The translations under genes were made by a program, and so were the position numbers. A DNA stretch of 20,000 bases from Psammoneis japonica (taxonomy: Eukaryota). Positions 1 through 20,000 of the stretch are shown piece by piece. The first letter of the stretch is position 1, and each line of letters opens with the position of its first letter. The DNA lies in the NCBI GenBank assembly GCA_008632985.1, contig QPGO01000281.1, positions 55,083 to 75,082 on the forward strand, given 5' to 3'. The notes under the pieces were generated by a model. The model was not told where the DNA came from and did no database searches. It was given only the letters and a program-made list of their open reading frames with translations.

Positions 1-1136
1 GTTCAGGATTGCCAAGCGAATTATCTTCCGGACGCAACGGCAAACTGGTAGGAGGTTCTTGTGGAGGCGAGCTTTGTCCTTGTTGGGTGCTTGGACTAAC
101 TGTTGCGGGAGACCCAGTTATTTGCGTTGGGCCCATGGTTGTCGGTGGGACCGTGGATGGGTTTGTCAAAGGTGGGGTTGGAATTGCCGTTGGTCGTTGG
201 CACAGTGGGTGAGTTTGTCGTTGGTTCGGTAGGAGATGTGGTTGTCGGTGGGACCGTGGTTGGATTGATCGGCTTTTCCGTGGTAAGAGGGGGGTCCGTT
301 GCGGCGGCACAACCTTCGGAACACCAACGATCTCTTGTGCCCTCCGGGTCTTCATTGAAGAGCCTCTGAAACACACCACTTGTACCGCCGTTGCACTCGA
401 TGGAACTGGGAAAATCACAACCCGACCCCGTGATCGCACATATTTGCCTTTTCCCGTTCATTGAATTCATCTCGTCAAAGACAAGGTCATTATAGGGTCC
501 ACAAAAATCCTCGCAGACTATTTTGCTGCAGCGGCCTGGCAGATCTGGGCGATTTGCGTCGCACCGGTAACTCTCGCTCTCACAAGACCGCCTAAATGGG
601 GTCGTCGTTATCGGCGTCAGAGTGGGTCGAGGAGTCAATGCAGGCGGCCGTGTCGACGTCGGAGTGGGTCGAGGAGTCGATTCAGGCGGTCGTGTCACCG
701 GTGGCAGGCCGGTACCGGCACCACACGCAACACAGACCGTTGAACGGACTTCTTCTGGGTGATTATTCATAGTTTCTTGGAACTGCGTCATGGTGGGACA
801 ATTGACGTCTTCATGCCATCCACAATTTCGGATGGCGCACTTGTATACGAATCCTAAATACATGCCGTAGAACTGTGCAGTGTACTCGAGCGTTTTTCCT
901 TGTCCACAGAAATCTGTGCAGATGTAGCACTCGGACATTGCAAAAGCCTTAGGACAGTCCAATCCGGAACGAAATTCGCAATAGTCGCTAACCGACAATT
1001 TGCGACTCGTTGTGGTGTTGGTGCGATTTCTCGCCCCGCGTACGAGTAGTGTTTCTTGGCCATTGGTGTTGGAAGGCCATCCAAACACAACTTGCTTTAG
1101 GATAAAGGGAAGCAGAGTTACCGAAAGCTTGAGCAT
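1..1136 (-). CDS. Putative secreted Cys-rich protein with two related Cys domains and Pro/Thr-rich (mucin-like) linkers; frameshift near 194; the probable true frame runs off the window start
   Basis: ORF 96..1136 begins with a signal-like MLKLSVTLLPFILKQVVFG, then an RKL motif and two domains sharing C.DFCG / CAI / FQ...N..PE..R...C. After about 194 the PT-rich text (PTAIPTPPLTNPSTVPPTTMGP...) continues stop-free in another frame to position 1. Confidence 0.75.
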
Positions 1137-1390
1137 GTGCGCACCTTATTCTTGCTGCCGCGAAAAACTGCGAGGTTCACTTTTTATGACCAGTGCTTTT
1201 AAGCCTGGATGTGGGCTCACTGGGGTGTTGCATTCGTCGATCGGTGCATTTTGTGAGTCCTTCAAAAACACACACGAAAAAAACTCGCGATTTCATTCCT
1301 GGATGTGTCACGAATTCGAATGTCGATTCTCGTTTTTGTTTTTGGTCTCAACCATCGTTTGCGCCATGCGTATCGTGGATTCTTCTCAAA

Positions 1391-2046
1391 TCTTTGACAA
1401 GGAACGAAGGATGAACTAAGCAAAACGGAGAACGCCATTGTCACTTCATGCAGCCGCTGCTTTGTGTTTCTTTTTTCTTTTTTGTCAAAAAAGTGCAAGA
1501 CGAAAGACGAGTCACGATTGCATGACGTCCCCAACGATGACGAGTTTCTACTTACAATTGCTCCTACGTAACAGCTCCATACAAAACATTGTATCCAAGA
1601 CTCTAAGTGTTCTTTGGTGGCGGTTTCTGTCTCAATCACTGTGTGCACTTTTGGGTCCTTTCTCTCCACTGGAGCAGCAGCAGAGAGAGAGAGCAGAGAG
1701 AGCAGCAGCCTCCAGAGCTGCTGCTCTGGAGCCACCGCAGGCAGCATGGAAGCACAAGAAGAAAGCGTTCATCATGGGCTCTTGTTGAGTCTTTGACAAG
1801 CAACAAAGGACAAGCAAAACAGAGAACACCGTTGTCACTTCATGCCACCACTGCTTTGTGTTTTTTTGTAAAAAAATGCAAGTGAAGCAACAAAGATGAG
1901 CCCTCAATTGTGCCACGTGCGCCTGACATGCTGAGTTTCTGCTGCTTGCACTCCTGCTCCTGCGTGCTGACAGCTCCGTGCAAAAATTTGGTGCCAAGAC
2001 TCCAAGCGAACATTGGCGGCATTTTCTGCCTCAACTGCTGTGCATT
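1391..2046 (+). repeat. Degenerate direct repeat of about 260 bp (copy 1 about 1391-1650, copy 2 about 1790-2046) straddling the edge of the TpA-depleted domain
   Basis: Shared blocks in the same order: tctttgacaag, aagcaaaac.gagaac.cc.ttgtcacttcatgc, ctgctttgtgttt, gagtttct, acagctcc, ccaagactc.aag. Confidence 0.85.
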
Positions 2047-5000
2047 GCAAACATCTTGGTCTGAGATTGTGCAATCAAAGGAGAAGAAAATGGAGAGGGG
2101 GTGGCCACCACAGGGGCATGATGGAGTCACAAACTGAGATGAAGAAAATGAAGAAGAGCACATGGCCAGCACAAGTCAATGGCAGCAGCCTTGGCCCCAA
2201 GCCCCCACACATGTGCCTTGTCCTTGCAATGGCGCCATGAGCACTCAAGAGTTGCAGAACACTCTCCAGCCAGGCAGCTGCCTCCCAGACCCTCCACCCA
2301 GCAGTGTCAGCTGATTGCAAAGTTTTCTCTGCAGCAATCAGACCACAGTCAGCCGATTGCATCCCTGCAGAGCAGCAATTGGTTGGCTGCATTTGTGCAG
2401 CAATTGTGTGGTCTGATGAACTGACTGCTGCCATTTCACTGATTTCAGCTGGAAAAAGAGCTTGAATTTTGATTGCGGTCGATTGCAACAGTCGATTGTG
2501 AATGTGACCTCCTGGGCTCTTTCCCAACAATCAGGTCATTGCAGTCAAGTTTGCAGCAGTGATTGCAGTCAAAGTGAGGCTGAATGCAATTGATCCTGGC
2601 AACTGGTTGACACTGCCCTCCAGGCCATGTCAACTTTTGTCTGAACAACCTTGCGGAACAGCGCAACAAGCAAAATGGGCAAGCAACCCATGGGGGCTCA
2701 TTGCAGCCAGAAGCAACACACTCTTCATTTTCAGATTTAACATTTGTGCCTTTGAAATCAATCCAGAGCAGATGAAGCAAGCTGGAAGCTCAATTTGTCA
2801 AATTTTGTCATCCTGCAGGATGGTGGCAACAATGTGATTTTGTCAACAACATTGTTTGGCTGCATTTTTTGTCATGCACCAAGAATTTTGCAGACAAACT
2901 TTGTTCTGCACTTTCACTCCAACAATCCAACTCTCTCCAAATTGACAATGTGAAAGTGGAGCCATTGCAATCACTTCAAAAATGTCCTCTCAAAAGATCC
3001 CTTGGATCCAAGTCATTGCTCTGTGCAGCAAAATCCAGGACTCATGTTCTTTGCTTTGTTGAAGACTGCTGAAACAGCAGCTCCCTCTCCATCTTGCTCT
3101 CAGTCAACATGAAACCAACCTCCTGCACCAGCAATGTCTCACACCACCACAAATCGAGACAACTGATCTTCACACCACCACACCAGCTTTGGCTCAGTGG
3201 GTGCCAAAAATCTGGCAAATGGTGGGATGATGCATCATCTGCATGCAACATGGCATCACAAATGGGTGCAACGGCATGCTTGCACAAAACTCATCTGGAT
3301 TCTGTTCTCTGATGGTCTGTTTGTGAACCCAAAAAAAAGTGTGACAAACCTGCTGCAGCAATGGGGCTGGACAAAACAATGATTGTTTGGATGCCTCATC
3401 TGCAGCGTCAATGTCATCATTGGCTCCAGTGGGCTTTTGACAAGTTCTCCATGTTGTCACCACCATGATGGTCTGTGCACTCAGTTGGAGCATGCCTGCC
3501 ATGCCATTTCGAAGTTGCTTGAGGCCTGGGTCTCACAGCTGCATCAACCTCAGAGTCAACACACCTTGCACTTTGTTTTCCTCCTCTTTGGAGCACACTG
3601 AGCAAAATCCTCTTGCAGGAGGCCCTGTTGTCTGTGCTCAGGAGCTGCACATGCATCCCCTCAAATCGTCCTCAAGCAAGAACATGGAGGAAGTGCCAGC
3701 ACACTGTGTTGTGCCATTTGGCATCATCAGCAGACCCACCAGGCCCACACATGACAGCTCAGCACACAACAAAAGTGACAGTGCCGCCATTGTTGTGTCA
3801 GCTGCAACTTTGGATTTTTCAAGAGCTGCTGCAAAGCCAGCCTTGAAAGTGCTGAGGCCACTCTTCACATTTTGTCCATCAAAACAGCACATTGTGGAAA
3901 CTGACCAGCTGCCTTTTTCCCAAGTCAGAGGAGCTCATTGGCTGCAACACAACAAAGAAAGCTGACAATCTCTCCTCCACTTTCATGCTGCCTCCTGCTC
4001 CAATGTTGGAAAACAGCTGAAAACCACTCACAGTGTGTTTGGGTTCAATGAGCTTGGGAATTTTTGTTGGCCATGGCACATGCTGTGTGTTTTGCAGACA
4101 GAGCAAAGCATCTGTGAGAACTTGTCAAAAGTTGCAATTTTGACAGCAAGACAAAACAACCAAGGTGGGTCAAGGCAGCAGCTGTCTTGTTCAAGCTGCT
4201 GCGGTGCTGTGTGGCAGCAGTCTAAATGACATGCTCTGCCTTCAAAACACATTTCTCACTTCTCCAGCTGCCTCAGAGGCAACAAAGCTGAAAGCATCTC
4301 TCAAAGAGAAAAACATGAGCTCTTTGTTGTGTCACCCATGTGCCAAAATCTGGCAGAAATGGACAACCACAGGTGGCCTCCACACTTCAACTTTTTAGCT
4401 CATTTTGGCTCAGTCAATGGTTTCACAGTCTGCTGCTGCACACCATCATCATGACTCAACATCTGTCATCTGAGCAGCACAATCTGTGCTCCAATTGCTT
4501 GTGCTGCTTTCTTGGCACATCAGCGAAGACACAAAAAACCTTTTTCTTGTTTTCTCCTTTTCATTTTTGCTGCACTCACTTTTAGATGGCAGCCCTTTTT
4601 GTCCCCAAGATTTGGTGCTCCACATGTTTTCCTGTCACATTTTTTGTTGAAGCAGATCAAGTGCTGGCACTTGTTGCAGGAATCAGCTGCTCCCCATTTT
4701 CTCAGTCATTTTGTGCTTTTTTGCATGAGTGGCATGTTCTTTTGCTTTCCAAAGGGCTGGCCCAAGAACCTTTCTTGCTTGCCTTGTAACTGCCCTGACA
4801 GCAGCTCTTTTTCAAGGCTTTTGACTGCTCTTGGAACAACACCGCAGCAGATTGCAGCCAGACATGGAAAAATCAGGGGCAACGTGTTCTCTGATTCTCA
4901 CAGAACAATCTCTACAGTGTCAGCCAGATGGCTTGTGTGGAAACCATGCTGATGCCACCAAGGATCAAAATGTGGGGTGAGCAACAAATCTCAGTTCTCC

Positions 5001-5340
5001 TGTGACACACAGAACAAGTGCGTGAAGGCATCAGAAGCCACACACACACCAGAAAAGGCTTGGACTTCAACAACATTGGAACACTTCTCACCTGGCAGCT
5101 CTGCAGCATGGAGGGACTCTGCACATGTCTGTTTGTGAGGGCCATCTGGTGGAGCAGCTGTGCACTGGCTTTGGGAGAAAAGCACCATGGCTGCAACCAC
5201 CAATGCCTCCAGACAGTTGATGCCCTGGCTTCTGCATGAGCCACAGCAACACTTGCCACATGACTGAAAAACATTGCAGCTTTGTGTTGCACTTGATGGC
5301 CAACCTTGAACACACTTTTTCCTGGCAGCAAACTTGTGGA
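1610..5340. other. Hypermutated domain A: TpA- and CpG-depleted, TpG/CpA-enriched degenerate DNA of unidentified origin
   Basis: Hand count finds about 7 TA dinucleotides (1869, 2738, 4223, 4396, 4583, 4787, 4913) in about 3.7 kb. ORFs in all six frames essentially lack Tyr and are rich in Cys/His/Gln. Confidence 0.9.
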
Positions 5341-6354
5341 CCGTTGTGTAGACCAGTGCTACGATGCCTCTACGACGATTGAAGTTCAAGACACACGTGG
5401 CGTAGTCAAGAATGACAAGGACGACGACAATTTCTGCGTCGTGTTCGACCCATATATAGCATTACGGTAAGTGCCGAGATATTTACTCTGCAGTTTTCGT
5501 CGATATCCAACGTCAGGCGTGGCCAACACGGTGGGTTTCATTCTTTCTTCTTGTTTTTGACAGGCATCCATTGAATTCGGTTGTTTCACTGCTTCTGACG
5601 GCATTCATACACCGTACCGTGCGACCAACTCGTCCCCCCGGATAGCGGAAGCTGTGCTACTTCAAGTCCTAACTGCATTAGCTCGTTGACGCTTTCAGTC
5701 CAGGAAATTTCTTGCGAAGAAAGCGAAAGCCAAAACAACCAAGTCAACGAAACATGCAATGACTTCGCTGACGTGGAACTCGAGGGTAAACTTATCCAGG
5801 TCACATGTGGTGATTCGCAGGCCGAACTTGAAAGAAGAACGGTCTATCGTAACCAGCCGTTCAAAGTTGGAACTGGAGATGACTGTCTACCAGACGACAT
5901 CCAGTGTAAAATCTACGACTATAATGATCAGAGCCAGATAGTCCAGATGGTCACTTTTGATACGTCATGCGCGGAACCGTTGAATGTCAAGAACACTTTT
6001 GGAATGTTGCAGATTGAGGGTTGTGCTGATCAGTGGGAAAACTTCAATCGGCAATGTCGCCCCTTTGTTGATACCACTTATTCAGTGTCAAACGTTGGTG
6101 ATGAGGTTTTCACTCTCACTGAAGCTTATGATTCGATTTATGACTTTGATTTTCTACATGGGGAACCACAAACTGTGCCACCGAGTGAGCCCAAACCTTT
6201 AGTATTAGCTGTCCACCAGGACGCTTTCGATTTGTGTGTTCAGGGCATTGCTTGCTACAACAGCACTTCGACTGTCAAGGCTGAATCTAATGAAAATGGA
6301 GCCCCGTGTGAAGCTATGGCGATGGAAAGTTTTTGTTATCCAGGGATTTTTTGA
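5339..6354 (+). pseudogene. 5'-damaged, frameshifted gene for a Cys-rich repeat-domain extracellular protein (diatom-type, QMVTFDTSCAEPL...FG.L.I.G motif; possibly DUF7467-like)
   Basis: Exon piece 5339-5466 (DRCVDQCYDASTTIEVQDTRG...NFCV) resembles the ORF C-terminus (DLCVQGIACYNSTSTVKAES...SFCY). After the intron come ASIEFGCFTASDGI and PCDQLVPPDSGSC..., which joins ORF 5686..6354. Frame breaks at about 5455 and about 5610. The domain name is from recall only. Confidence 0.65.
5467..5563 (+). other. GT-AG intron (97 bp)
   Basis: Donor GTAAGT at 5467; pyrimidine tract ttcattctttcttcttgtttttga ending in CAG at 5561-5563. Confidence 0.75.
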
Positions 6355-6875
6355 TTGGCGGCGACCAAAGAATCTTCCCCTGTGTGTTGTGTTTCGAGAT
6401 GCGCTGTAACTTTACCGTTTTGTACCGTGGCACTTCTCCAAGACTTCTCGTTTTGCGTTGAGATAGGCATATACCGTAGCTCTTGTTTGTCACTTTGCAT
6501 CGAGAAAGATAGGAATACATGCCGTGGCTCTTGTCTTACTGTACCGTACTCGTATCATAGGGCCCGGAAGCTAGCTCTAGCTACGGCCGTGATCGTTTAT
6601 GAGAGTCGCACCACCGCTAGAGTAGAGGGCCGTACTGCTCTAGTAGAGACACGTCTCTACTCGAACTCTATGCACTTCACAACCAACAAACTTTCGGTGC
6701 CAATGACAAAAATACAAAATAAAGGCTGCTCGAAGAACTTAATTCATGTTATTAAAGTTTCGACAAACGCTTAAGATAATTTCGCTTCACAATCACAAAT
6801 GGCACACAAAAAACAAACTCCATACTACCAGGGAGCTGCACCACACTACACACACAAAGAACCAAATGATTAGCC

Positions 6876-9800
6876 TCAAACACTCTTGTCGCCAGTGCTT
6901 GCTGCTTCATCGTCGGCTGGTTTCTTTACGGAATCTCCCTTGAGTTCCCCACCCGCTTCGGCATGTCGCAGAGCGGACAAACTTCTCGCAATCGCCCAAT
7001 CGGCAGCATCACTCGCGCCAGCTTCCTCGGTTGATCCTTCTGCCTTGCTCTGTTCTGCAATCTGCATCCAAACTTCCGCTTGAGCCAGTGCATCCTGTTC
7101 CTCCTTTAATGCCTTGGCCTTTTTGGCCTTGGACGATCCAGAACTGGCATCGTCGCTCTTGCCGGCTGAAGTATCCGATTTCTTCCTTCCAAACCAGCTT
7201 CTTCGTTTGCTTCCGCCACTACCGCTGCCACTACCAGTACCCGTGCTCTTGCCATCATCCCGGCTCGTATCGGGACTACTGCTAGACATGCTCTTGCCTT
7301 CTCTGTCTGTCTTGGAAAAGTTACCCGCCGCAGCCATGACTCCCGTCCAGTCACCCTTGTCAATCAACGCGTCAAGCTCTGCCGCACGCTCGGCATTGAC
7401 ACCGGTCCTTTTCTTTCGGCTGCTCGCGTCGGTATCCAACGAGGCTGAAAAGGACCGCGACGACGCTGTCGTGACACTCGCGTCACTCATCATGGCAGCT
7501 GCTTCTCCGACAGCCTCCCAGTCACCAGCATCAATTGCCTCCTCGAGCGCTGTTCTCCTGCGCTTTCGCTCCGTCTCGGACGTGTCGCCTTCGTCCTCTG
7601 ACTTGAGAGCCGGTGCAGCCTTTGCTTTATCGTCCTTATCATCCTTTTTGCTCTTGGCCGCTACAGCGGCTCCGGCCGCACCAAGCGCTGCTCCACCAAC
7701 TGCCGCACCAGCAGCAATACCAGCCACGGCTCCTCCCGACAATCCTCCGTCACCACCGCCTCCAGCCGCCGCTGCAGCGGCGGCAGCATCACCCTGCCTC
7801 GCTTTACGAACCTCATCGCGAGCCTGAATCTTGGCACTCTTGCGGTCCGCCGCCCTTGCACGCTGGGCAATGCTGCGTTCCTGCATGGTCCTCAAGGTCT
7901 CCACCAATTCCTCTTCGCGTCCACGGAATTGCAACATCATTTCATCCACATTGTCAATCTCGTCCGGCACGACACGACGCACCAGGGCCTCGACTTCGTT
8001 ACGAATCTCGGCACGCTTTGCCTGCTTGCTCGGACTGTCACTGAGACTGGTCGTTTCGCCCTGCGAGTATCCCGAGGACGTACCATAACTGCCACTTCCC
8101 GTACCCGTATACGAACCCGTATAATACTCGGACGATCCCGCCGTTCCACTGCGCGTCGCCGATCCCGACTGCGACCCGGAATTCTTACTTCCGGTTTCCG
8201 ATTTGGACGTGGACGACTCTCCTTCCGACTTTTCAAACCTCGCTGCCGCCAAAACGACACCCTCCCAATCTCCGGCATCCACCAAATGATCCAATTCGGC
8301 CGCACGCGCCGCGTCAATGGACGAGACGGAGGATCCACCCTGGAAGCGGACGTGCCCGATTTGCGGCTCTTGGAGGAATGGGATTGCGAATCCGACGCGG
8401 CCGCCAAGAGGCCGCCGTGGCACCCACCGCGGCCCAATCACCGGAATCAATGGCACTGTCCAAATCGGCACGCGTCACCGTGGGAAGGTCCGGCACATCG
8501 CCGCTTTCAATCTTATTGGCGGATCGTGCACTCGCCACTCCCATGGCGGCCAAACTCGCTCCACGCTGTGCCTCGTCCTGTTCGGAATTGAGACTGGAGA
8601 CACCGGCCGACGAGGACCATCCACTCGAACCAGCATTCGAGGAGGAATCGTCTGATTTCTTTGCTGCCGACGCGACCGCCAATTCGGTATCAGTATCACG
8701 TTTGTTTCCCTTGCCATACGTCGCCGTTCCGGCACCCAACACCGCCGCCTTGTCTTCTGTCGAGGGCATGTACGGACGATTATCGTCCTTGTCTTGAGCA
8801 CGTTTACGACGAAACACAAAGTACCCCACACCGGCAATGGTAACCACCGAGGCAGCAATGACGATTCCGGCAATGCCTCCACCGGAAATGCCACTGTCGG
8901 GTGCTGGTGCCGGAGTCGGTGCTTCGGCCGGAGACAAGATGCGCACCACCGAATTGGGATTGACCACCGTCAGGGCAGTTTGCAAATCGCCATTGACAAA
9001 GATCGCTTCCGTCAAGGCTTGTTCGTAGGCATCCCGCACCGCTGCCGGATCGTCCTCGTCGGTAATCTCGAGAATCACCACGGGATTGACTTCGCGGCAT
9101 TCGTCCGTATCGGGAATGCCATCCGGACAAGCTGTGTATTGAAAGGAGTGAAAATAGAGTGAGTATCGTAATATGCAAGTGGCATTCACAATACACAACG
9201 CAATCCAACTGATGTAATAACACTGTACACATTTCTTTTTTACTTACGAATCACAATGGTTCCTGTAATGGACGTGGGTGTTCGTACCATGACGGCCAAT
9301 CGTCTACTACGCAATTGTCGTCGTCGCATTCGAAATTCCGAAAGAGCAACATTGGTGGCCACAATATTCATGGCGGCAATCAAATCGTCTGTATAAGTAG
9401 ATGGATCGACTTCTTGTACCAATCCATCTTGTACCGCAATCGGATACGGTACCATGACGGTTTCAAAATCCGGTGTCGTTTCCAACGATGGTGCTGCCGT
9501 CAAGGTGGGACCGCTCGTGGTGGGTGCCATGGTGGGTGTTCCCGGGAGTAAACTGGGAGCCGACGAGGGCATGATTGTGGGTGCGGCACTGGGAGCATTG
9601 CTGGAAATGACACGATTGATGGACGTGTCCGTAAACAAACACACCGAAAAGAGATAGGGTGTCACTTGTCCTTCATCGACACCGGTAATGTTGATGCGCG
9701 CATTGTCTCCGATACAACAATCATCCGCGGCTCCCGGCACATTGGTACAGAGACACGCGAGGGCATTGAAATTGAGTTGCAAAATCACAGGCAATTCACT

Positions 9801-10043
9801 GAAGTCTGTAACATTTTCCAGAAATCCATCGGGACCCGAGAGTTGCACAAACGTGACGTATTCTTGACGATCAATCAAATCATCCTTGGGGCAACAGTCC
9901 GAGCCGCTCAGAGCACCGTAACACGTGTCGGTATCCACAAACGGACCGACACTGACATTTTGGGCACCAGTAAAACAATTCAGGAGCAAGAGAGATAGCA
10001 TAAACCTGAGTATCATGGTTGTTGTTTTTGTTGTTGCCGTCAT
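6876..10043 (-). CDS. Type I membrane protein, two exons (10043-9248, 9131-6876): signal peptide, Cys-rich domain with an EF-hand-like motif, PS/T linker, RxL motif, TM helix, and a long Ser/Gly-rich cytosolic tail with four GDW repeats; two apparent 1-bp deletions at about 8410 and about 8339
   Basis: Joins ORFs 9240..10043, 8314..9198, 7937..8437 and 6876..8471. Splicing gives IVI-P-CPDGIP in frame. TM is GIAGIVIAASVVTIAGVGYFVF followed by RRKR. Also present: DDLIDRQEYVTF, RRRQLRSRRL and a VPDEIDNVDEMMLQFRGREEEL motif. Confidence 0.85.
9132..9247 (-). other. GT-AG intron (116 bp, phase 1)
   Basis: Minus-strand donor GTAAGTA at 9247 and acceptor ...ctcctttcaatacacAG at 9132; removal fuses two ORFs in frame (C|CT = Pro). 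Confidence 0.85.
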
Positions 10044-11570
10044 GGTTGTGTTTCGTTCAAAACTACTTCAGATTCAAGAATCACTTTTCGTTATTTCAAC
10101 TCCTCCCCAGAACAATACGGTGTAGAAACCACGTAGATTCGTACCACACGTAAAAGGTACAGTACTACCACAACCGACGAAAATAATTAGTACTTTGGCC
10201 CGCTTGAGTGATCAACGATGAAACAATCTCGCTGTTGTCGTTGTTGTTTGCCTCGCCCACACACAAAAACACAAACAACACACGACTACCCGATTGCCGT
10301 TGGGTCAACTTTCACGTACTTGCCGGTCTTGGATTACTTGGCGCCCAATGTGGTGTTGTTGCAGTGCAGTATGGCGTGGTTTTTGTGCTGGCGGGTTGCT
10401 CCCGGTTTGCATCTCAGATCTTCATGTGAAGGTTGAATATTTGAATGTAGGTATACCATCGCTTATACATGGTATGATTAAAGAACGTTACTTGGCCATT
10501 GAGTGTATGTACAAGCGGATTATTGATAAGCATACAAATCTATATACATCATTACCAATGTTTTTGTCCAACAGTATCAATTTTGATTGGAATGAAATTT
10601 TCTTTCATTTTCCTGTCCGTTCAAGAATTGCAGTTACTCTAAGAAATGGAGATATTTTATTCAACGGAAAATTTTTGGCCAGGACTCAACATGTTATCTA
10701 CGGCCATGAGGACAAATAATTCAGTCACGCTTGACGTCATGCTCGCGCACGCACTTCAGGAGCATGCGGATGATTCGATGAAAATTTCGCACGATTGGCG
10801 CATTGGTGGCAACTGGGACGGCGCGCCGGGCTGTCTCACTGCTCCAGTCCCAGGAACAATCCATCCAGCTCATTTGGCTTTCATGCTGTCTGATGGTTGA
10901 TGATTGTGCCTTGGCTCTGTGTGTGTGGCAGTGGATGCAGAGAGAGGGCTGGGGTGCTGCAGTGCGAAGGAGGAGAAATGCAGCCCTCTGCCACCAACCC
11001 CCACTCTCTCTGCTGATTGCTCAAAGGGGGTGTTCATTTTTTGCCCCTCTCTCCACATCATTTTGCAGTTTGCACTTTCAAGCTGCTGGCCAAAGAAAAA
11101 GATGTTGAGCTTGCGCAGCACAAAAGAGTCAAAGTGTGCGCACATTTCTTGCTGTGACAAAGCCTGTCTTGGTGAGACAGTGCAGCGCAGCTGGGGTGGA
11201 AAAACCAGCAGCGCCGCATTTCCCAGCTGCAATGAGCGACAATCTGTGAGCAGCTTTGGAGGGGGAGAGCTGCAGCTTTACAAAAAAAAAGGCTGTTGAA
11301 AGAACTGCCAATCCTTCCTCAGGACACAAACAAAAGAAGCTGACAAAAGCAGTGTGCTGACTTCCTCCCTTCTTGCACTGAGCCCATGTTCTTTGTTGCT
11401 GAAAATTTTCAAGCTTGACATGTTGGAAGATTGCCGCTGTCTTTTGGACACTTCTCCAACAATTTTTGCACATTGTTTTGGTGACACAGGTGGCGCCAAT
11501 CTTGTTGTTGCTCAGCTCACAATCAGCCCAAGCAAATGCTGTCCTTCTGACATCACATTGCATTTTCGTT

Positions 11571-11701
11571 GGCTGATTGAGGAAAACAAGCTTGGGAACA
11601 AAGGGGTTCTTGCATCATGCTTGTGCATTTCCACAGGCTGATTGAGGAAAACAAGCTTGGGAACAAAGGAGCTGCATCGTGCTTGTCATGTGATTTCCAC
11701 A
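11571..11701 (+). repeat. Tandem duplication of a unit of about 65 bp
   Basis: ggctgattgaggaaaacaagcttgggaacaaagg is identical at 11571 and 11636; both units end in atttccaca. Confidence 0.9.
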
Positions 11702-14221
11702 CGTGGCTCTTCTGAAATGTGAAGCAGGGTCTTGTTTTCTTGTTGTGTTTTGAAACAAAGTTGTTTTGTTCATTGTCACCTCTCATCTCACTTCACTTTG
11801 TTTGGCTCAGAGCAAAAACAAGTTCTTAAAGTGAGCTCCCAAAATGGCACACCTTCACTTGGAGCTCCAAAACTTTGCAAAAGGTTTTTTCATTGGCAAG
11901 CTTGAGCATGCAGAAAAGAAAAATGAAGCTCTGCACAGTTTTGCAGTGAGAGATGTCACATGGAAAATAAAAAAAATGAAAAAAACAAAGGAAGTTGTTT
12001 CATTTGATGAAGTCTGCAAGCCTTTGAACCAAGGAAAGAACAAAAATTCAGAAAGACAGATCTGTTGACTCCACTCATCAACTTCTTGATCATGACAGCC
12101 CACAAATTTGACCATTGCCACACCTGCAGTGGATTCTTGCTTGCATCAGTGCCAAAAGAGAAACCACAAAAAAAAAGCGAACAATTTGGCCCAGCTTTGC
12201 AAACAAAAACCCCGCAGACAACGCACCTCTGCCACTGCATGATCTTTTGAAATGAAAAGAGCAACAGCTCCATTTTGCCAGTTGGCCACCATTGGTCAAA
12301 GCCACTGCACATGGGAACAAGATTTGTGGGGTGTGGGGTGTGGCCATTGCACACAAGCCAACTCCAGGCACAAACTTCAGCCCTGGGTGGGTTTCCAGCA
12401 GCATGACCCTGCTCTTGCACAAGTGCCCACAGCAAGGGCTTGCTCAAATTCAAGTGTGCAAAAGCACCTGCAGCAGGCAGCTGTGCACCCTGCACAGAAA
12501 GCCACATGTTTTTCACCATGCAAAACTTGCCCAACAACCTGTTCACAAGCCCAGCAGCAGATGTGAAAAATGTTCAAACCATGGCAAGCTTGTTCATCCA
12601 GGGCTGTGAACAAGCAATGATGCCTGCAACCCTTGTTTTTTTGGCCCAAACTTGCACAAATGCACAGCCACCATCTCAGAGCACCTGTGCAAATTTGAGC
12701 TCATCAAAGCCAAACAGGAGGGATGACACACAGGCAGGCATGACAAACTCTGTGCATTGTGAGCTCTGCATTTTGCATGCCAGGCAGTGAGTGCATTTTT
12801 CTTCAACACTGCTCCAGACAACTGGTGGAACCTTGCAGCATTGGACTGTGACATTGAGCCTTTTTTCATGTGCTGCATGTTGCATGATGCACACACATTT
12901 CTGTGCACCTTTGATGGAATTTTGTGTCATTTTGCAGATTTGCAAAAATGGTGCCAAGCATTGAGGTGTGCAGTTGTGCCACAAACTTGGTCATTTTTTC
13001 AGATGTCGAAGACAAGCACATCCATCAAAAACAAATTCTTGTGCCACAGAGCTGGCGTGTGGAGCTGCACAAGCCAGTGTCACATGGAGCCCCATCGCCT
13101 GGGGCTGGAGCCTGTTGCAAGGACCTCTTTTGCAGCACAGCCATGCCCCCCCCCTTGTTCTTTTTTTAACATCTGCACATGCCAGCACACTCTCAAGATG
13201 TTGGCAAGGGTGCTGACACACAAGAAACATCAAAAGTTGTTGAGTGGATGACTGGACAGTTGCGCTGCAATCTCTGCAAAATTTGTCCACAGTCATGCAG
13301 AAATGTGTGCCCCAGATGTGTGGTGCATGATTGCAGACATGCACATTGCAGCCCAGCAGCACAAGGCCCTGCATGGTGCTTGCCAAGATCTGCCATTGTG
13401 CCACACATCTTGTTGACTTGTTTGGGCATGATGCAAGCAGAGCTCTTTCCTCTGTCTGATGCTCCTTTGATGAGCACCGGGGCTCTCACCACCCACTTCA
13501 ATCTCTGGAGACTCGCATCAGAGGGGGGGTGCAATGTGGTGGTTGTTGCTTTCATTGACACTTGTTTTGATGCTGAATTTTAGTTGTCTTGTTTTTTAAA
13601 ACATGACATTCAAACCTCAATGGTCTTTGCACAATGCAAGGCATTTCTCTGCATTTCTTGAGGAATTTTGTCATCTGTTTGCTTTGACCACACATCCCAA
13701 AGTGACTTGCACATCCAAAACTTTTGTGATTTGCTGCTTGAGTTGTGACAATGAATCCTCTTTGCTTTTGACATTTCACATTTCAACTCAGTTTTTGCTT
13801 TTCACACCCCATTCGTGCATCACCATTGTGTGTGCTGGTGCAGTGTCTGCACCCCAGTCATCTCCACGTGTGCACTCCCTCTTTGCATCTCACTCATTCC
13901 CAGAACTCTGTGCACATTTCTCCACCACATTTTCAGTGCTTTTTCTGCATGAGCCATTTTCTGCACATTTCACAACAGCACACTCTCTCCCCTTGGTTTG
14001 GTTTTGCCACAGGATTCCCGAAAATTCCCCGGGATCACCACCTTTTGCCATGATTTTCCACTGGAAGCTTGATTTCTTGGGGATTCACCACGAATTGCAC
14101 TTTGTCACATGCACACTGCACACATGAATAAAAAAATTGGGAATTCCCTGTGCTTCCCTCTCACGCATTTCTGCACCCACGTGCCGGGATGCAGCAAGCA
14201 AAATCCCAGTGGAGTGGTCTG

Positions 14222-14636
14222 TGTTGGGTCAGTGTGTGGAGTCGTTGCTGGATGGTGTGGGAGGAATGGCTGCAGACGTGCATTTGGGATGTGACATCCA
14301 ATTGTGTGGGAATGAAAATGCGGAAACAAGTGCATCAACAAGACAAGGGTGAGAGTGTTGCGGCACAGGCTGCGACACTGCATCAGCATTTGTTCGCTTT
14401 GTCAGAGCCACAGTCTGCTGTTGAGCATCTGAATGCAGTGAAATTGTCATTGCGTGGGTGTGAAACAAAACGGCATGCACAGTCGTTTGTTGCTGTGCAG
14501 AACCACATGGGTGTCAGCCACAGAAACAGCACTGGGTTCTGCATGTGCGCATTGCGCAACGTCAGATTTTGCAACAAATGCAAACCAACCATGAGAATTG
14601 CTGTGACTGAAATGGTGTCACACTTGCGAATCAACA
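14222..14636 (+). repeat. Candidate 5' LTR of copia element 1
   Basis: Bounded by TGTTG (14222) and CAACA (ending 14636), the canonical copia LTR termini, about 220 bp upstream of the gag ATG. No second LTR in the window to confirm. Confidence 0.45.
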
Positions 14637-16866
14637 GTTTTCGATGTGTGTGACAGGTGTTGATCTGAGCAGTGTGGGGTGGCATGCCCAGAGCATGTGC
14701 TCATTCAGACAAACTGGCATGGGGTGGCCTCTCATTGCTGGTTGACTGCATGGACCTGTTGCCACAGCGCTCGCTGAGTGTTCAGTCTCCTGTCCACACC
14801 CATTGTGAGAGTCTCACAGTTGCTGCAGCTTGATTGTCTTTGTGACACAGGAGACATGGCAGCAGCAGCAGCTCAAGCTTTGGCAGCATCAGTGCTGGCA
14901 GCGGACATTGACAATGTTCTGCAGACATGTGGCATCACTGGCATCAATGCAAGAGCTTGCTTGGTGTGCTGTGAAGGATTTGCAACACTGGAGAACATTG
15001 CAGTCATGGAAGGTGACTCAGATGTGGAAGACATGGCAAGCAGGGTTGGCCGTTGCACTGGCCAGGATGGGAGAGTGGCACTTGGTGCTGTCCAAATTAA
15101 GAATCTGCAAGCTTTGGTTTGGTGGCTTCATGATCATCAGAAGCACAACCTTGTGCTGGAGGATGCAGCACTGTTTAATCAGGCAGCACTGATTGATGCT
15201 CACCAGAAGAAGTGCATGGAAAAAGATGTGGTTGAATCAGAAGTGTTGGTCAGCTCATTGCCGGCATTCAAGTTGGAGAATTTTGACATGGTGGAGGATG
15301 CATTTCTGAACCTCTTGTCACAGAAGGTTGGGGCACTGAAAGAACCATTGCGTCATCATGTGATGAGACTGGCAGCAGTGCCAGCCACATTTGTTGACAC
15401 AGCCAAGGAGCACATGTGTCAATTGAGTTTGAATGGGATGGCATTCGATCAGGACAACGGTGCTGTGTGTCATCTGTTGAAAGCTCACCTGGTGAACATG
15501 GAAGTGGTGGCATGGATTGAAGCCTGCAACAGTGCAGAGAACAGGAGAGATGCCTTCTGGGCATGGGCAAACCATTGCAACAGACAGGGAGAGCTTGGCA
15601 AGTGCACTCAGTTGGCGTTGGCAATCATCAAGAGTCATTGCACTGCAAGAACAAGCATCACTTGTCATTTGAATGGCACACAGCAAAACTCACCAGTGCA
15701 TTTGCAACCGTGGCAAAGAGTGAGGACCGGTGCAAGACAGACAGGCAGAAAGTTGAGATTCTCCAAAGATGGGTTGAGACCGACAATGTTTGGCTGCAGG
15801 CTTGCATTCACATGATCAGTCCACAGCATCCTCGTGACTTTCCTGGCATGTGTTCAGAGGCTGAGCATGATTCAAAGTGCAAGATGTTGGACATGTCCCA
15901 TGAGAGAGGCCCAGGCAGGGGCTTCACTCGAGGTGGCGGTCGAGGCCCCCGAGGAAGTGGTGGTTGAGGTCATGGGCCTGGAGGCCACGGCAGGGGATGA
16001 TTTGGTGGCAGAGGTGCAAATGCAATGATTGATGGTGCGGGCATGTTGGACCCCACTTGTGCCTTTTCCCCAGATGAGTGGCAGCAACCAAGGTTCAATG
16101 GTGGCCAAGTGCATGTTGCACAAGCCCGTGAGCAGATGGCCAGATGTGGTGGCAGTCCTGGACATGGACGTGGTGGCCCCGGTGGACAACAGGCAGCTGG
16201 TGCACACCAGAGTCCAGACAAATCAATGCAACAACAACAGGAACAGCTGCTGGCTGATGCGGCAAGTGCAGGTTGTGGACGTGGACACAAGATTGAGAAA
16301 GGGGGTGGTCATGGAGCAGTTTTTGGTCATGGAGCCCACATGACCACCTGACAGTGTGGGGGGTGACAGCCGTTTCAGCTTTGCTTGCATGCCACACAAA
16401 TGTGATTGCATTGTCTCTGCTGTTGTTGCTTGTGCTGTCTAAACCCCACCCAGACAACACCACAAAGAGTTTCTGAAGGATCAAGGCAACCTCCAAAAGA
16501 TTGGCACAATCGGCGAATGCAGCGTCAAACCCGGGCAATGTGGTTCCTGGTCATGTGTCCCACAATGAATGTCACACCCATGCAGACACGTGTTGTGCAG
16601 GAGCAAACTGGAGATTGATGGAGACCACTGATGAAATGTGTGAAGCAAGTCCATTCCTTGAATCGTGTGATCTGGTTGGGCAGATTCCAGTTGCGCGATG
16701 TTGTGCTGTTTGGACAGATCCAGCTGTGATGGATGAGTGCTTGTTGGTTGGTGACCAGATGCTGTGGTTTGGACAGCAAATGGAGCATTCCCTTGTCAAC
16801 CCCAGTTGGTTGTGGGCATGCAACATCTCAGTCAATGACAACCCTTGCGATCCCCAAGACAGCTTT
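14222..16866 (+). mobile_element. Degenerate Ty1/copia LTR retrotransposon 1 (diatom CoDi-like): gag, Gly/Arg-rich region and aspartic protease, truncated at about 16866
   Basis: gag-like from ATG 14856 (QIKNLQALVWW, FLNLLSQKVGALKEPLR, AFDQDNGAV.HLLK, RQKVEIL) with a frameshift near 15633. Protease-like ECHTHADTCCAGANW...SPFL...IPVA...WT...QMLWFG..MEHSLVNP...V.DNP at about 16560-16860. Confidence 0.85.
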
Positions 16867-19077
16867 GACAGACATCCGAGATGGGGAGTGCACTCCCTTG
16901 TGTCGGACAGACTGGCACAGACAGCATGGAGAGATCCGATGATCTCTCCTTTGCTCACTTTCTTTCTCATCTAGTGCACGATTGTCATCTGTCCTAGACA
17001 TCAGTTAGATTGTCCCAACACCGCCAGTCTGCAAGGTTGTGAGCAGCAGTGTGCTGTTCCTCTTCCTCTGTGCTCCTCCGCTGCAACGCCTGTTGCGCCA
17101 ATTGGCAATTTTTTCTTCGTTGAAATCGTCATCATTGTCACAGCTGTTTTTTCACCTCTCGATTTGTGATCAGACAACCACCGTAGAACACATGCCAGAG
17201 ATCTGCACAGAAATTTGATTTTTTTCCACGCAACCATGATGGTGAACAAAAATCAAAACGCCGTCGATTTGACCAAGATCAAGATGGCTGCGGGTTGAAT
17301 TCAGCCCACACAATTGCTCACCCCATGCACACCGTTTCCTGAATGCTCTTTGTTCCGACAAGACACATGCTCCTGAAGATCTTCTGGATGGATTCACCCC
17401 TCAAGGCCTCAAGAGCAATGCTGTTGCTGTCCTCCGTCATGAGATCGTTCAGAATCTCATCATCCCTCAAGCTGCACTGACTGAAGATCTTGCATGAATC
17501 GGACCAATCATTGAAAAGGCCCCTCTCTTTGTGGCCATCTCTCAAGACTCCCTGGTTCATCTGAACCTCAGCACTCTTCAGAAGGCCATGATCAAAGCGA
17601 TCTCAGAGAACGACGACACCATGAGGGCACACGCTGAGACTCCACGCTTCCACTTCAGCCCTGGATTTTGACATTGTGATTGCTGGGATGACATTTCAGA
17701 TGATCCGCATCCAGACCCACCACCTCCTTCAAGTTCTGCATCCCTGCCAGTTCCTGCTGTGCAGGTCCTGCTCCTGAAGACTTTGAGCAAGCTGTGACAA
17801 ACGCATTGAAGACATCCACTCCTCCTGTGCCATCTCATGCACCGTCTCCCATGACTGATGCTGCTGCGGCTTCTTCCTTGACTGCTGCTGGTGCTCTGCA
17901 CACCTTCAATCCAAAAGGACTTCCAAAGGATGCACCAGCCCGCCACCAAAAAAAGGACGCTGAGAAAGCAGCACTGGGGAAATCCCTGGCACCCCACAAG
18001 TCTGGAGACCTTTGTTGCGAGGATGGCACTGAACGTCCAATCCTTGCTGATGGTTCTCTCTTTGTCCATCGCATTGATTGGGATGCAAAGTCTTTCCTTC
18101 ATGATCCTCTCACTTGTGACAATGTCTCCCCTCAAGGAATCCGTGCATGGCACACTGCTGTGACCCAACAGGCCTCCGCTTGTGGCATGTGCATGCACCC
18201 CCTGTGGTGTTTTGTCAAGGACGGTGGAAACTGGGGCTTCACTTGTGGCAATGATCCCACCAATGATCCTCCACTCCGGATGACAGTGCCCCTTGACAGA
18301 ATGAAGTTGACCATCTTCCAGCACATTCAGAAAGTTGGAATCTTTCTGGCAGACTCTAAGTGCCCTGACATTGTTCGTCAATGCTGTGGAGACAGATGTG
18401 CTGCCATCAAGATGACCCTTTTCAACATTTTGCCGATTTGGACAAAGCGTCCTCATGAGTTGATCAAGAGCCACCCCCAGCAATCGCTGCTTGTGCAATG
18501 CTCACAGGCACATCAAGGGCGTCCCAAAGTTCCGACATGCCAATCTGGTCCTTGACATTTGTCCTGTGGGTGTCCAAGCCAAGCAAGTCAAAACTCCTGC
18601 TGGACCCAATGTGACTCAAAAGGCAACTCAGCCATGCCAAGGCCTTGCTGTTGATTTTGCCTTTGCTGGCCAATGCTCCAAGAACAAAGATGGCAAGTCT
18701 GATTGCCTTGGACACAATGGCAAAACGTGTTGGATCACTGTTTGTGACCACAAAACACACATGCTCCATGGGGTTGCAAGGGTTTCCAAAGCCAGTCCTC
18801 TCAAGTGGCTTTGCCAATTCTTGGATCAACATTTGCCGAATTGTCATGATGAACATGCATTTGTGGACCAAGGTGGGGAATTGTGCAAGAGTCCCAAAGT
18901 TGGTGACCTCTTTGAACAAGAATCCCAGTGTGACACATGTCCCTCTGGCACCGGTGCATCCAACCAATGTGGCCCTGTTGAACGCTCACATTTGACTGTC
19001 AAGAACGCGATTGGTGCAATTTCAATTGGTGCCAACCTCCCAATCAGGTTCTGGCCCCATGCTTTTTACCATTGCCT
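16866..19077 (+). mobile_element. Degenerate Ty1/copia element 2 (different lineage): gag-like region fused by internal deletion to pre-integrase and integrase core
   Basis: gag-like IRAW...HPLWCF..GFTCGND (ORF 17794..18555). Integrase core QGLAVDF...DH.T...SKASPL.WL..FL...VDQGGEL...GPVERSH...GANLP.RFWP.AF (ORF 18491..19249). The left boundary is approximate. Confidence 0.85.
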
Positions 19078-20000
19078 GATTTCTGATGCACAAGCACGAT
19101 CCATTGGCGCACACTGGGAAAATCCAAAACCACAGGTGGGGTCCTTTGGAGGCCATTTCATGGCACAGGTGACAGTCGCAGCAAAAGGATTTGACGAAGA
19201 AGCAAACATGGGCACAGTTGCATCCTGTGTTTCAGCCAGAAAAGGCTGACCATTTTCCACACGTTGCAAATGGGTGGCATTTGGAGGAAGTTGATCCAAA
19301 AATGGGTCATTCACACCCTCATCGTAGTGCACATGCTTTGCCGTCTTGACTTTGTCAGTCTCCGGATCCCTCCACAGGACATTTTTCAGGGTGTTCGGAA
19401 GACAGCCAAGGAAGACACCCTTCTTCGAATTGGTCCGGAAAGTGGCAGAACGAGCAGTGGAACGTTCAGACCACACTCGGCATCCAAAAGTCTTGAGAGC
19501 AGCAAAATCTTTGACCTTTCCAGTTGCAAGGGTGATGGGCGAGGCATCTTGATCTTTCGCAGGAGCAGCATTCTTGATGTGGAGGCAATGGCAAAAAGCA
19601 TGGGGCCAGAATCTGATCGGGAGGTTGGCGCCAATTAAAATTGCACAAATCGCGTTCTTGACAGTTGAATGTGAGCGTTCAACAGGGCCACATTGGTTGG
19701 ATGTGCCGCGGCCAGAGGGGCATGTGTCACACTGGGATTCTTGTTCAAAGAGGTCACCAACTTTGGGACTCTTGCACAATTCCCCACCTTGGTCCACCAA
19801 CGCATGTTTGTCACGACAATTTGGCGAATGTTGATCCAAGAATTGGCAAAGCCACTTGAGAGGACTGGCTTTGGAAACCCTTGCAACCCCATGGAGCATG
19901 TGTGTTTTGTGGTCACAAACAGTGATCCAACACGTTTTGCCGTTGTGTCCAAGGCAATCAGACTTGCCATCTTTGTTCTTGGAGCGTTGGCCAGCAAAGG
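19078..20000 (-). mobile_element. Inverted second copy of the element 2 integrase, extending further C-terminally
   Basis: ORF 19066..19899 carries DQGGEL, GPVER, KTFGCRVW, KGVFLG and HV..DEG copia integrase motifs; 19583-20000 is the reverse complement of 18660-19077. Confidence 0.9.

Follow-up and report, generated by a model that had tools for sequence, protein, structure and literature searches.

Probable saturated TpA hypermutation of largely retrotransposon-derived islands in a diatom genome

Targeted hypermutation serves as a genome defence in fungi, through repeat-induced point mutation (RIP), and in animals, through the APOBEC and ADAR enzymes. The closest described system is the TpA hypermutation of Bigelowiella natans, which Mettrop et al. 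reported from mutation-accumulation lines in a 2026 preprint (bioRxiv 10.64898/2026.01.13.699255). According to the available part of that preprint, two viral regions integrated in the genome held 231 of the 302 new mutations; A>G or T>C accounted for 230 of these, each located at TpA. The same part describes an ongoing mutation of about 1e-7 to 1e-6 per site per generation, 324 TpA-poor coding sequences (mean TpA 0.0018) in which reverse transcriptase and DDE domains are over-represented, and 124 clusters in which TpA is low and CpA + TpG is high, and it proposes an ADAT2-like deaminase (bioRxiv 10.64898/2026.01.13.699255). The present work concerns a stretch of 20,000 nucleotides of the diatom Psammoneis japonica (contig QPGO01000281.1), called the window below, in which normal genic DNA gives way to two islands almost devoid of the dinucleotide TA. 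In these islands, A:T to G:C transitions have occurred specifically at TpA and on either strand, each TA becoming TG or CA, and CpG to TpG/CpA decay is superimposed on this conversion. With a probability of roughly 0.78, the islands represent degraded, largely retrotransposon-derived nuclear DNA of the diatom that underwent saturated, locus-targeted TpA hypermutation, presumably by adenine deamination.

All coordinates are positions in the window, and the expectation for TA is the frequency of 0.0341 in the normal parts of the window, positions 1–1604 and 5349–10717. The two islands are as follows.

1605 to 5348, no strand: island 1, TA-free, with 7 TA (observed/expected ratio, o/e, 0.028) and CG o/e 0.13
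10718 to 20000, no strand: island 2, TA-free, with 18 TA, CG o/e 0.30, and TG and CA o/e about 1.8; it continues past the window end

The first-pass annotation of this DNA, made from the letters alone, had described 10720–20000 as holding about 18 TAs in about 9.3 kb, with strong CG loss, an excess of TG and CA, and sharp bounds against normal genes. The count is exact, and the dinucleotides bear out the rest of the description: TA 18 (o/e 0.03), CG 172 (0.30), TG 1051 (1.77), and CA 1036 (1.83). The expected number of TAs is 317 (binomial P about 3e-111), the TpA frequency of island 2 is 0.0019, and the lowest count among 1000 mononucleotide shuffles of 10718–20000 was 541, with a mean of 595. 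Island 1 was not part of that earlier finding and is of the same kind. The borders are abrupt, the last and next TA lying at 1604/1869, 4913/5349, and 10717/11279; dense TAs continue until 10717, and the following ones stand at 11279, 11827, and 11968. In the two normal parts, the TA o/e is 0.44 and 0.60 and the CG o/e is 1.09 and 1.13, and the GC content is 0.49 in the islands versus 0.51 in the normal parts. The stop triplets of the islands comprise 10 TAA, 6 TAG, and 231 TGA. With so few TAA and TAG, little can be read into a long open frame there, and annotation of such DNA yields long spurious open frames. The surviving TAs at 11968 and 14129 lie within AATAAA followed by an A run.

The missing dinucleotides are roughly balanced by those in excess. 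Compared with the expectation from the normal parts, island 2 has lost 316 TA and 457 CG (773 in total) and gained 369 TG and 357 CA (726 in total), and in island 1 the loss of 345 TA and CG stands beside a gain of 312 TG and CA. The direction of change can be followed in a duplicated sequence, of which one copy lies inside island 1.

1368 to 1665, plus strand: unconverted partner of the duplicate, just outside island 1, upstream of the gene at 96–1145 on the minus strand
1767 to 2062, plus strand: diverged duplicate inside island 1, 71% identical to 1368–1665

None of the nine TAs of the normal copy is kept in the island copy, where they correspond to 4 CA, 4 TG, and 1 GT; of the 14 CGs of the normal copy, 8 became CA, 1 became TG, and 2 are kept. 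A further record of the change is held by three reading frames of island 2 that have protein homologues.

14778 to 15812, plus strand: gag-like reading frame of 345 codons with 0 tyrosine, matching 376 protein clusters
18476 to 19078, plus strand: Copia-type integrase fragment, aligned to P0001 residues 336–535 at 56% identity
19054 to 19998, minus strand: second, inverted Copia integrase and SH3 fragment, aligned to P0001 residues 398–711; Pfam SH3_retrovirus at 1.6e-08

P0001 is an intact polyprotein of 1421 amino acids and a relative of both integrase fragments. Tyrosine columns were taken as conserved when present in at least 4 of 5 homologues (integrase) or in at least 60% (gag-like frame). 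At all 16 such columns, the tyrosine codon (TAY; Y, pyrimidine) is now cysteine (TGY, 11 columns) or histidine (CAY, 5 columns): seven of seven in 18476–19078, five of five in 19054–19998, and four of four in the gag-like frame (3 Cys, 1 His). The three frames contain 0–0.4% tyrosine, compared with 2.4–3.7% in the integrase homologues and 2.9%, pooled, in the gag-like ones. Since both cysteine and histidine occur within one copy, A>G changes took place on both strands. The conserved arginines of the island frames are often replaced by histidine, cysteine, lysine, or glutamine, which is the mark of CpG decay. The TAs of the islands were thus converted to TG and CA and not avoided.

Substitution spectra of transposon copies, a comparison which the first-pass annotation had proposed, were obtained from a related Copia family in metagenomes. 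When metagenome contigs were scanned for sequences related to the integrase, 170 relatives were confirmed and 80 loci kept, with TA o/e from 0.01 to 0.73. The family alignment holds the 64 of these 80 loci with at least 1200 bases aligned to locus L061. Changes were polarised against four TA-normal copies, with the ancestral state set by majority rule, and the near-identical loci L048, L065, and L071 were left out of the low-TA set before the pairwise test of outcomes. The most converted copy, L061, has 4 TA in 5501 nucleotides, and its best matches are about 78–87% identical. The fate of the ancestral TA sites is given below.

L061: 170 ancestral TA sites; kept 1; 86 TG, 64 CA; 19 other
L063: 168 ancestral TA sites; kept 49; 59 TG, 46 CA
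Four control copies: 91, 98, 110, and 99 ancestral TA sites; kept 80 each

The substitutions at TA sites are almost only A>G or T>C (150 of 170 to TG or CA in L061), and A>G is confined to TA: its rate there is 0.53 in L061, versus 0.03–0.09 in other contexts, and 0.36 in the part-converted copies, versus 0.03–0.05. Comparisons of close relatives display the same asymmetry. Between L070 and L068, which are 91% identical, 54 TAs changed to TG or CA and 3 in reverse; the counts are 39 and 0 for L020 against L031, and 21 and 2 for L018, whose contig comes from a different record series, against L001. The asymmetry is absent between L010 and L002 (4 vs 7). Within the metagenome contigs, the TA-poor stretches form blocks with normal flanks.

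When two copies were converted at the same site, the choice between TG and CA agreed in 49 of 80 cases against 41.4 expected, and further pairs of copies gave 18 of 41 (20.3 expected) and 17 of 33 (16.5 expected). Such near-chance agreement shows that, in this family, the copies were converted separately after their divergence and on both strands. The process thereby acted copy by copy after insertion, which fits chromosomal DNA and not edited RNA. In the pair L021/L020, the outcomes agree at 15 of 15 sites, and these two loci are probably one lineage. In 6 of 7 copies, the TG and CA outcomes did not form strand-coordinated runs, and the kept TAs showed no spatial clustering in 6 copies. L058 was the sole copy with strand-coordinated runs (8 vs 15.8 expected, P = 0.003). 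Most of the TA-normal copies are broken as well, their longest stop-free frames spanning 362–835 codons versus 1421 in intact relatives, so decay alone does not attract the process. Such broken, TA-normal copies include L056, L036, L068, L064, and L053.

The part-converted copies also reveal which TAs are preferred. The share of TAs changed to TG depends on the 3′ base (C 0.43, T 0.37, G 0.22, A 0.14), and the share changed to CA depends on the 5′ base (A 0.45, G 0.35, T 0.18, C 0.14). At RTAR sites (R, purine), 30 went to CA and 3 to TG, and at YTAY sites 111 went to TG and 49 to CA. From these mirrored preferences, we infer that the converted base is the adenine in 5′-T-A-Y-3′. This rule, derived from the metagenome copies, predicts which TAs survive in the islands of the window: YTAR accounts for 16 of 25 surviving TAs, compared with 26 of the 237 TAs outside the islands (Fisher P = 9e-9), and RTAY for 0 of 25, compared with 84 of 237. 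In normal DNA, RTAY is the commonest TA class and YTAR the rarest, the reverse of the island survivors, and the genes therefore carry no low-level trace of the process. The conversion is accordingly confined to bounded regions and spares the neighbouring genes, the normal parts showing no RTAY depletion. The T-A-Y motif is a constraint that any candidate enzyme must reproduce.

The depletion of CG in the islands (o/e 0.13 and 0.30), matched by a gain of TG and CA, is what decay of 5-methylcytosine at CpG would leave. As a whole explanation, CpG decay is ruled out, as TA makes up 316 of the 773 dinucleotides lost in island 2. The two losses are also distributed differently. In 500-nucleotide bins of island 2, the TA o/e stays at 0–0.07 throughout and the CG o/e ranges from 0 to 0.62; L061 has completed its TA loss without losing CG beyond the level of its TA-normal relatives (CG o/e 0.69). 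For these reasons, the TA process is separable from CpG decay, and the window data suggest that it saturates sooner. At the start of island 2, the TA-free border lies outside the CpG-poor one, as seen in the following piece.

10718 to 10850, no strand: edge of island 2, TA-free and CpG-rich, with about 14 CG in about 120 nucleotides (counted by eye)

The first-pass annotation had postulated a second mutational process, distinct from the decay of methylated cytosine, by which TpA in chromosomal DNA becomes TpG or, through the other strand, CpA. The duplicate, the 16 of 16 tyrosine columns, the balance of losses and gains, and the metagenome copies all support it. In the proposed mechanism, a nuclear polynucleotide adenosine deaminase, drawn to foreign or silent chromatin that bears a mark, would turn the adenine of 5′-T-A-Y-3′ into inosine, and replication would fix the inosine as G. 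Because TA to TG or CA makes no new stop from a sense codon, the copies would be disabled by missense changes, with every tyrosine codon lost. In tRNA, U33 precedes A34. The base-context motifs in the table of a review are 5′-UAG for ADAR and 5′-ACG for TadA/ADAT2 (PMC10661471). Since TAG is disfavoured here and TAC and TAT are favoured, a TadA/ADAT2-like enzyme would fit better than an ADAR-like one. For a 'YAC' preference of TadA, the literature yielded PMC9399415, in which YAC stands for yeast artificial chromosome.

The same annotation had called the process repeat-directed, and this part is not supported. The stretch 10673–13340 is converted at a word depth of 80–133 in contigs of the public run X1, near the 64–112 of the genes at 5337–10672; the 270-nucleotide partner of the island duplicate, just outside the island, is untouched; and, in the related metagenome family, TAs are retained by most of the broken copies. 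Further into island 2, the X1 word depth is 220–320 at 13341–16675, 6658 at 16676–17342, and about 830–1300 at 17343–20000. This profile over 10673–20000 means that island 2 mixes stretches of near-genic depth with highly repeated ones, and it suggests that the TA-free pieces exist in several to about 100 copies. Two repeats stand out within the island.

16866 to 17095, no strand: core of a very high-copy piece, with loose ends at 16866 and 17095
18660 to 19077, plus strand: inverted-repeat arm of 418 nucleotides, 95% complementary to 19583–20000
19583 to 20000, minus strand: other inverted-repeat arm, pairing with 18660–19077

The high-copy repeat at 16676–17342 is short, very abundant, and itself nearly TA-free, and no terminal repeats were found around 16866–17095 when looked for. 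The inverted-repeat arms have the identical cysteine or histidine outcome at five of five shared conserved tyrosine columns, and the stretch carrying the inverted integrase copies was therefore duplicated after its conversion.

Regarding the content of the islands, the first-pass annotation had seen several elements in both orientations. The two Copia integrase fragments on opposite strands and the gag-like frame agree with it only in part; nothing else was recognisable, since a Pfam scan of 105 island frames gave no family above threshold except SH3_retrovirus. The integrase fragments are about 50% identical to intact polyproteins of 1358–1421 amino acids with gag_pre-integrs, RVT_2, and SH3_retrovirus domains, and the presence of the integrase and SH3-like domains of a Copia polyprotein supports the Ty1/Copia identity of the target DNA. 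No Pfam family was found in the 12 gag-like homologues tested out of the 376 matching clusters, and no reverse transcriptase, long terminal repeats, or target-site duplication was found in the window.

The normal DNA beside the islands carries genes, of which one is informative about the host.

6876 to 10067, minus strand: flanking normal gene with one intron at 9132–9247, belonging to a family whose named members are all diatoms

Among the 120 homologues listed for the frame 6876–8474 (minus strand), 31 carry organism names, and 31 of 31 are diatoms. They include Ditylum, Odontella, Attheya, Seminavis, Pseudo-nitzschia, Nitzschia, Thalassiosira, and Cylindrotheca, all diatom genera. The window accordingly belongs to a diatom and not to the chlorarachniophyte B. 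natans. The family proteins have about 1000–1150 residues, repeated 'GDW..AV' motifs occur in the gene, and the overlapping frames 6876–8474 and 8314–9243 on the minus strand are probably one gene split by an assembly indel. A homologue search with the DUF7467 frame at 5599–6354 found none. The Pro/Thr-rich gene at 96–1145 (minus strand) contains a 42-nucleotide tandem duplication (79% identical) at 595–678. Run X2 covers only the genic parts 1–1424 and 6671–10672, at high depth and with a joint at the intron 9132–9247. It is recorded as 'DNA?' and behaves like RNA, being limited to genic parts and skipping the intron. The islands have no X2 cover, which is not evidence of silence.

The X1 contigs lie on 798–2952, 3783–4970, 10406–11033, 11140–11600, 11657–12247, and 12908–13872, at a word depth of about 46–71, and between them repeat about 5.4 kb of island sequence, each piece differing from the window at 1 to 13 letters. 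Elsewhere they depart from the assembly by indels, e.g., an extra C after 8337 in all depth, and such disagreements indicate that they do not simply restate the assembly, although the sample may be the same. The X1 and X2 reads have extra bases relative to the window at 8337, 8410, 189, 116, and 10115–10136. Among 40 of the 271 differences between X1 and the window, several are CG versus TG or CA, two are TA versus TG (11692 and 11719), and one is a double change, TG versus CA (2225–2226). The last three are the one hint of ongoing mutation in this DNA.

The indel errors of the assembly against the reads (the extra C after 8337 in all X1 and X2 depth) suggest that the window is an imperfectly polished long-read assembly, and this would lend some weight to a sequencing or assembly artefact, e.g., systematic miscalling of modified bases, as the source of the signature. 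Such an origin is scarcely credible, and we regard it as already largely refuted. About 5.4 kb of TA-free island sequence is matched by the X1 contigs, the signature recurs in metagenome assemblies of several record series, the available part of the B. natans preprint describes it from Illumina mutation-accumulation data, and the 71%-identical duplicate and the tyrosine losses at the protein level represent real evolutionary divergence. Alternatively, the changes could have been made at the RNA level, by ADAR-like A-to-I editing of retrotransposon RNA or deamination of complementary DNA (cDNA), and fixed upon insertion. ADARs favour a 5′ U according to the review table (PMC10661471), and editing enzymes are described, in the excerpts available (PMC4866542), as targeting retroelements. 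What makes this extremely unlikely is that a single copy carries TG and CA in near-equal numbers, that non-transposon DNA and the unclassified DNA between recognisable elements are converted too, and that the 3′ G favoured by ADARs is disfavoured here (TAG 0.22 vs TAY 0.37–0.43); the island borders, as far as seen, also seem not to follow element ends. ADAR-type RNA hyper-editing was accordingly rejected, both strands being hit within one copy and TAG disfavoured.

Inheritance could stand in for conversion in place if a single loss of TAs in elements, or in their non-autonomous derivatives, had been followed by multiplication in that state; such lineages might thereby escape a TA-directed defence. 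The inverted integrase copies with their 5 of 5 shared outcomes would be explained in this way, as would the word depth of 6658 at 16676–17342 and of about 830–1300 at 17343–20000 against a genic 64–112. The non-transposon duplicate at 1767–2062 is nevertheless converted, and so is 10673–13340, equally TA-free at a near-genic depth of 80–133; the loss of all 16 conserved tyrosines argues against working proteins, and outcomes in the metagenome family are independent between copies. Together these render the idea very unlikely. A different chemistry within the same targeted process deserves more attention, although it too is unlikely: a heritable base modification at the palindromic TpA in silent chromatin could mispair and decay to TG or CA, as 5-methylcytosine does to T. 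A TET/JBP-type enzyme may, for example, oxidise thymine to 5-hydroxymethyluracil (5hmU) or 5-formyluracil; a modified adenine is another candidate. 5-Formyluracil mispairs with G, and dinoflagellate 5hmU favours TpA; a literature search on 5hmU at TpA in dinoflagellates found no paper. In favour of this chemistry, the target is a self-complementary dinucleotide, like CpG, and TA loss runs parallel to CpG decay within the same islands. The strands are hit about equally in L061 (68 TG and 53 CA in the between-copy outcome data), the events are scattered over single sites, strand runs being absent from 6 of 7 copies, and the motif is equally readable as T>C in 5′-R-T-A. By sequence alone, a modified base and adenine deamination would leave an equal footprint. 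Against it, no such TpA mark is documented for diatoms in the literature searched, and L061 shows complete TA loss without extra CpG loss, so that two marks would need independent placement.

Several observations weigh against the reading of the islands as the product of targeted adenine deamination. New mutations have not been seen in this diatom, where the process may have died out; few claims stand behind natural deamination of adenine in chromosomal DNA, all of them cited by the B. natans preprint (bioRxiv 10.64898/2026.01.13.699255). The strand runs expected of a processive single-strand deaminase are absent in 6 of 7 copies. The 5 of 5 tyrosine outcomes shared by the inverted integrase copies, together with the high depth suggestive of multiplied TA-free pieces, mean that converted DNA was copied later and that not every copy was converted on its own. 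Most broken metagenome copies keep their TAs, a selectivity for which this reading does not account. Run X1 may be the assembly's own sample, and ancestral states set by majority rule can be mis-polarised at CpG.

Its saturated state in a diatom, together with traces of varying extent in environmental Copia families, makes it improbable that the process is peculiar to a single species, and TA-free islands rich in TG and CA offer a simple genomic marker for surveying lineages that have the system. An enzyme that turned out to be a DNA adenine deaminase would be a counterpart, in nature, of the adenine base editors. It is tempting to go further and propose, as a tentative idea that is rather doubtful at present, that diatoms and chlorarachniophytes, possibly along with many other eukaryotes, share a defence by a TAY-preferring DNA adenine deaminase guided to marked foreign chromatin. 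Such a defence would erase every TpA and kill transposons and integrated viruses by missense, with the GC content unaltered.

Among the known systems, CpG decay of methylated transposons resembles the process in explaining the CG loss (o/e 0.13–0.30) and part of the TG/CA excess. It differs in being unable to remove TpA, the loss of which is complete in L061 without extra CG loss. RIP of ascomycete fungi is likewise a transition hypermutation tied to one dinucleotide, by which bounded stretches of transposon DNA are ruined on both strands, but it proceeds in the opposite direction, from CpA to TpA, leaving DNA rich in AT, TA, and stops, whereas here no stop codon is created from a sense codon. 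C>T change at CpA is not what is found in the islands, where TA is removed and the GC content is unchanged (0.49 vs 0.51 outside). RIP is triggered by sequence duplication before meiosis, and no repeat trigger is seen here: in the duplicate pair 1368–1665/1767–2062, only the island copy is converted. RIP has a length threshold above the size of this pair. Editing of retroelements by ADAR and APOBEC enzymes shares the deaminase type of hypermutation, and ADARs the preference for a 5′ U; it acts on RNA or one cDNA strand and leaves a one-strand signature, whereas here both strands and non-transposon DNA are affected. ADARs, in the review table (PMC10661471), prefer a 3′ G, and the preference here is for a 3′ pyrimidine. 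TadA and ADAT2-3, together with the TadA-derived adenine base editors, offer the A-to-I chemistry and a target of A followed by C (5′-ACG in the same table, PMC10661471); they differ in that position 34 of tRNA is what they act on in nature, and a natural function on chromosomal DNA is unproven for them.

The B. natans system remains the nearest. The first-pass annotation knew of no published description of such a process, and this no longer holds, for the same signature is reported there (bioRxiv 10.64898/2026.01.13.699255, available part). A full-text literature search for TA loss or A-to-G hypermutation of transposons returned only that preprint and nothing in diatoms, and the literature on TpA adenine deamination in transposons or heterochromatin gave no further description among the 12 best matches. 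In the available main text of the preprint, the words 'diatom', 'retrotransposon', 'trinucleotide', and 'context' do not occur, and CpG decay is not mentioned. The signature of the islands matches the TpA hypermutation of B. natans: as far as the accessible text describes it, the changes there lie at TpA in bounded foreign DNA, are A>G or T>C with hardly an exception, and leave TpG or CpA by strand, and the TpA-poor coding sequences have a mean of 0.0018, compared with 0.0019 in island 2. The differences concern the host, a chlorarachniophyte (Rhizaria) there and a diatom here; the target, where giant-virus and virophage inserts with TpA at 3.3% and 9.2% (available part) contrast with saturated Copia-type islands; and the kind of evidence, mutations being caught in real time there, according to the same part, and known here from comparison only. 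New relative to B. natans are the diatom host, the saturation, the Copia-type islands, the motif rule, and the independence from CpG decay.

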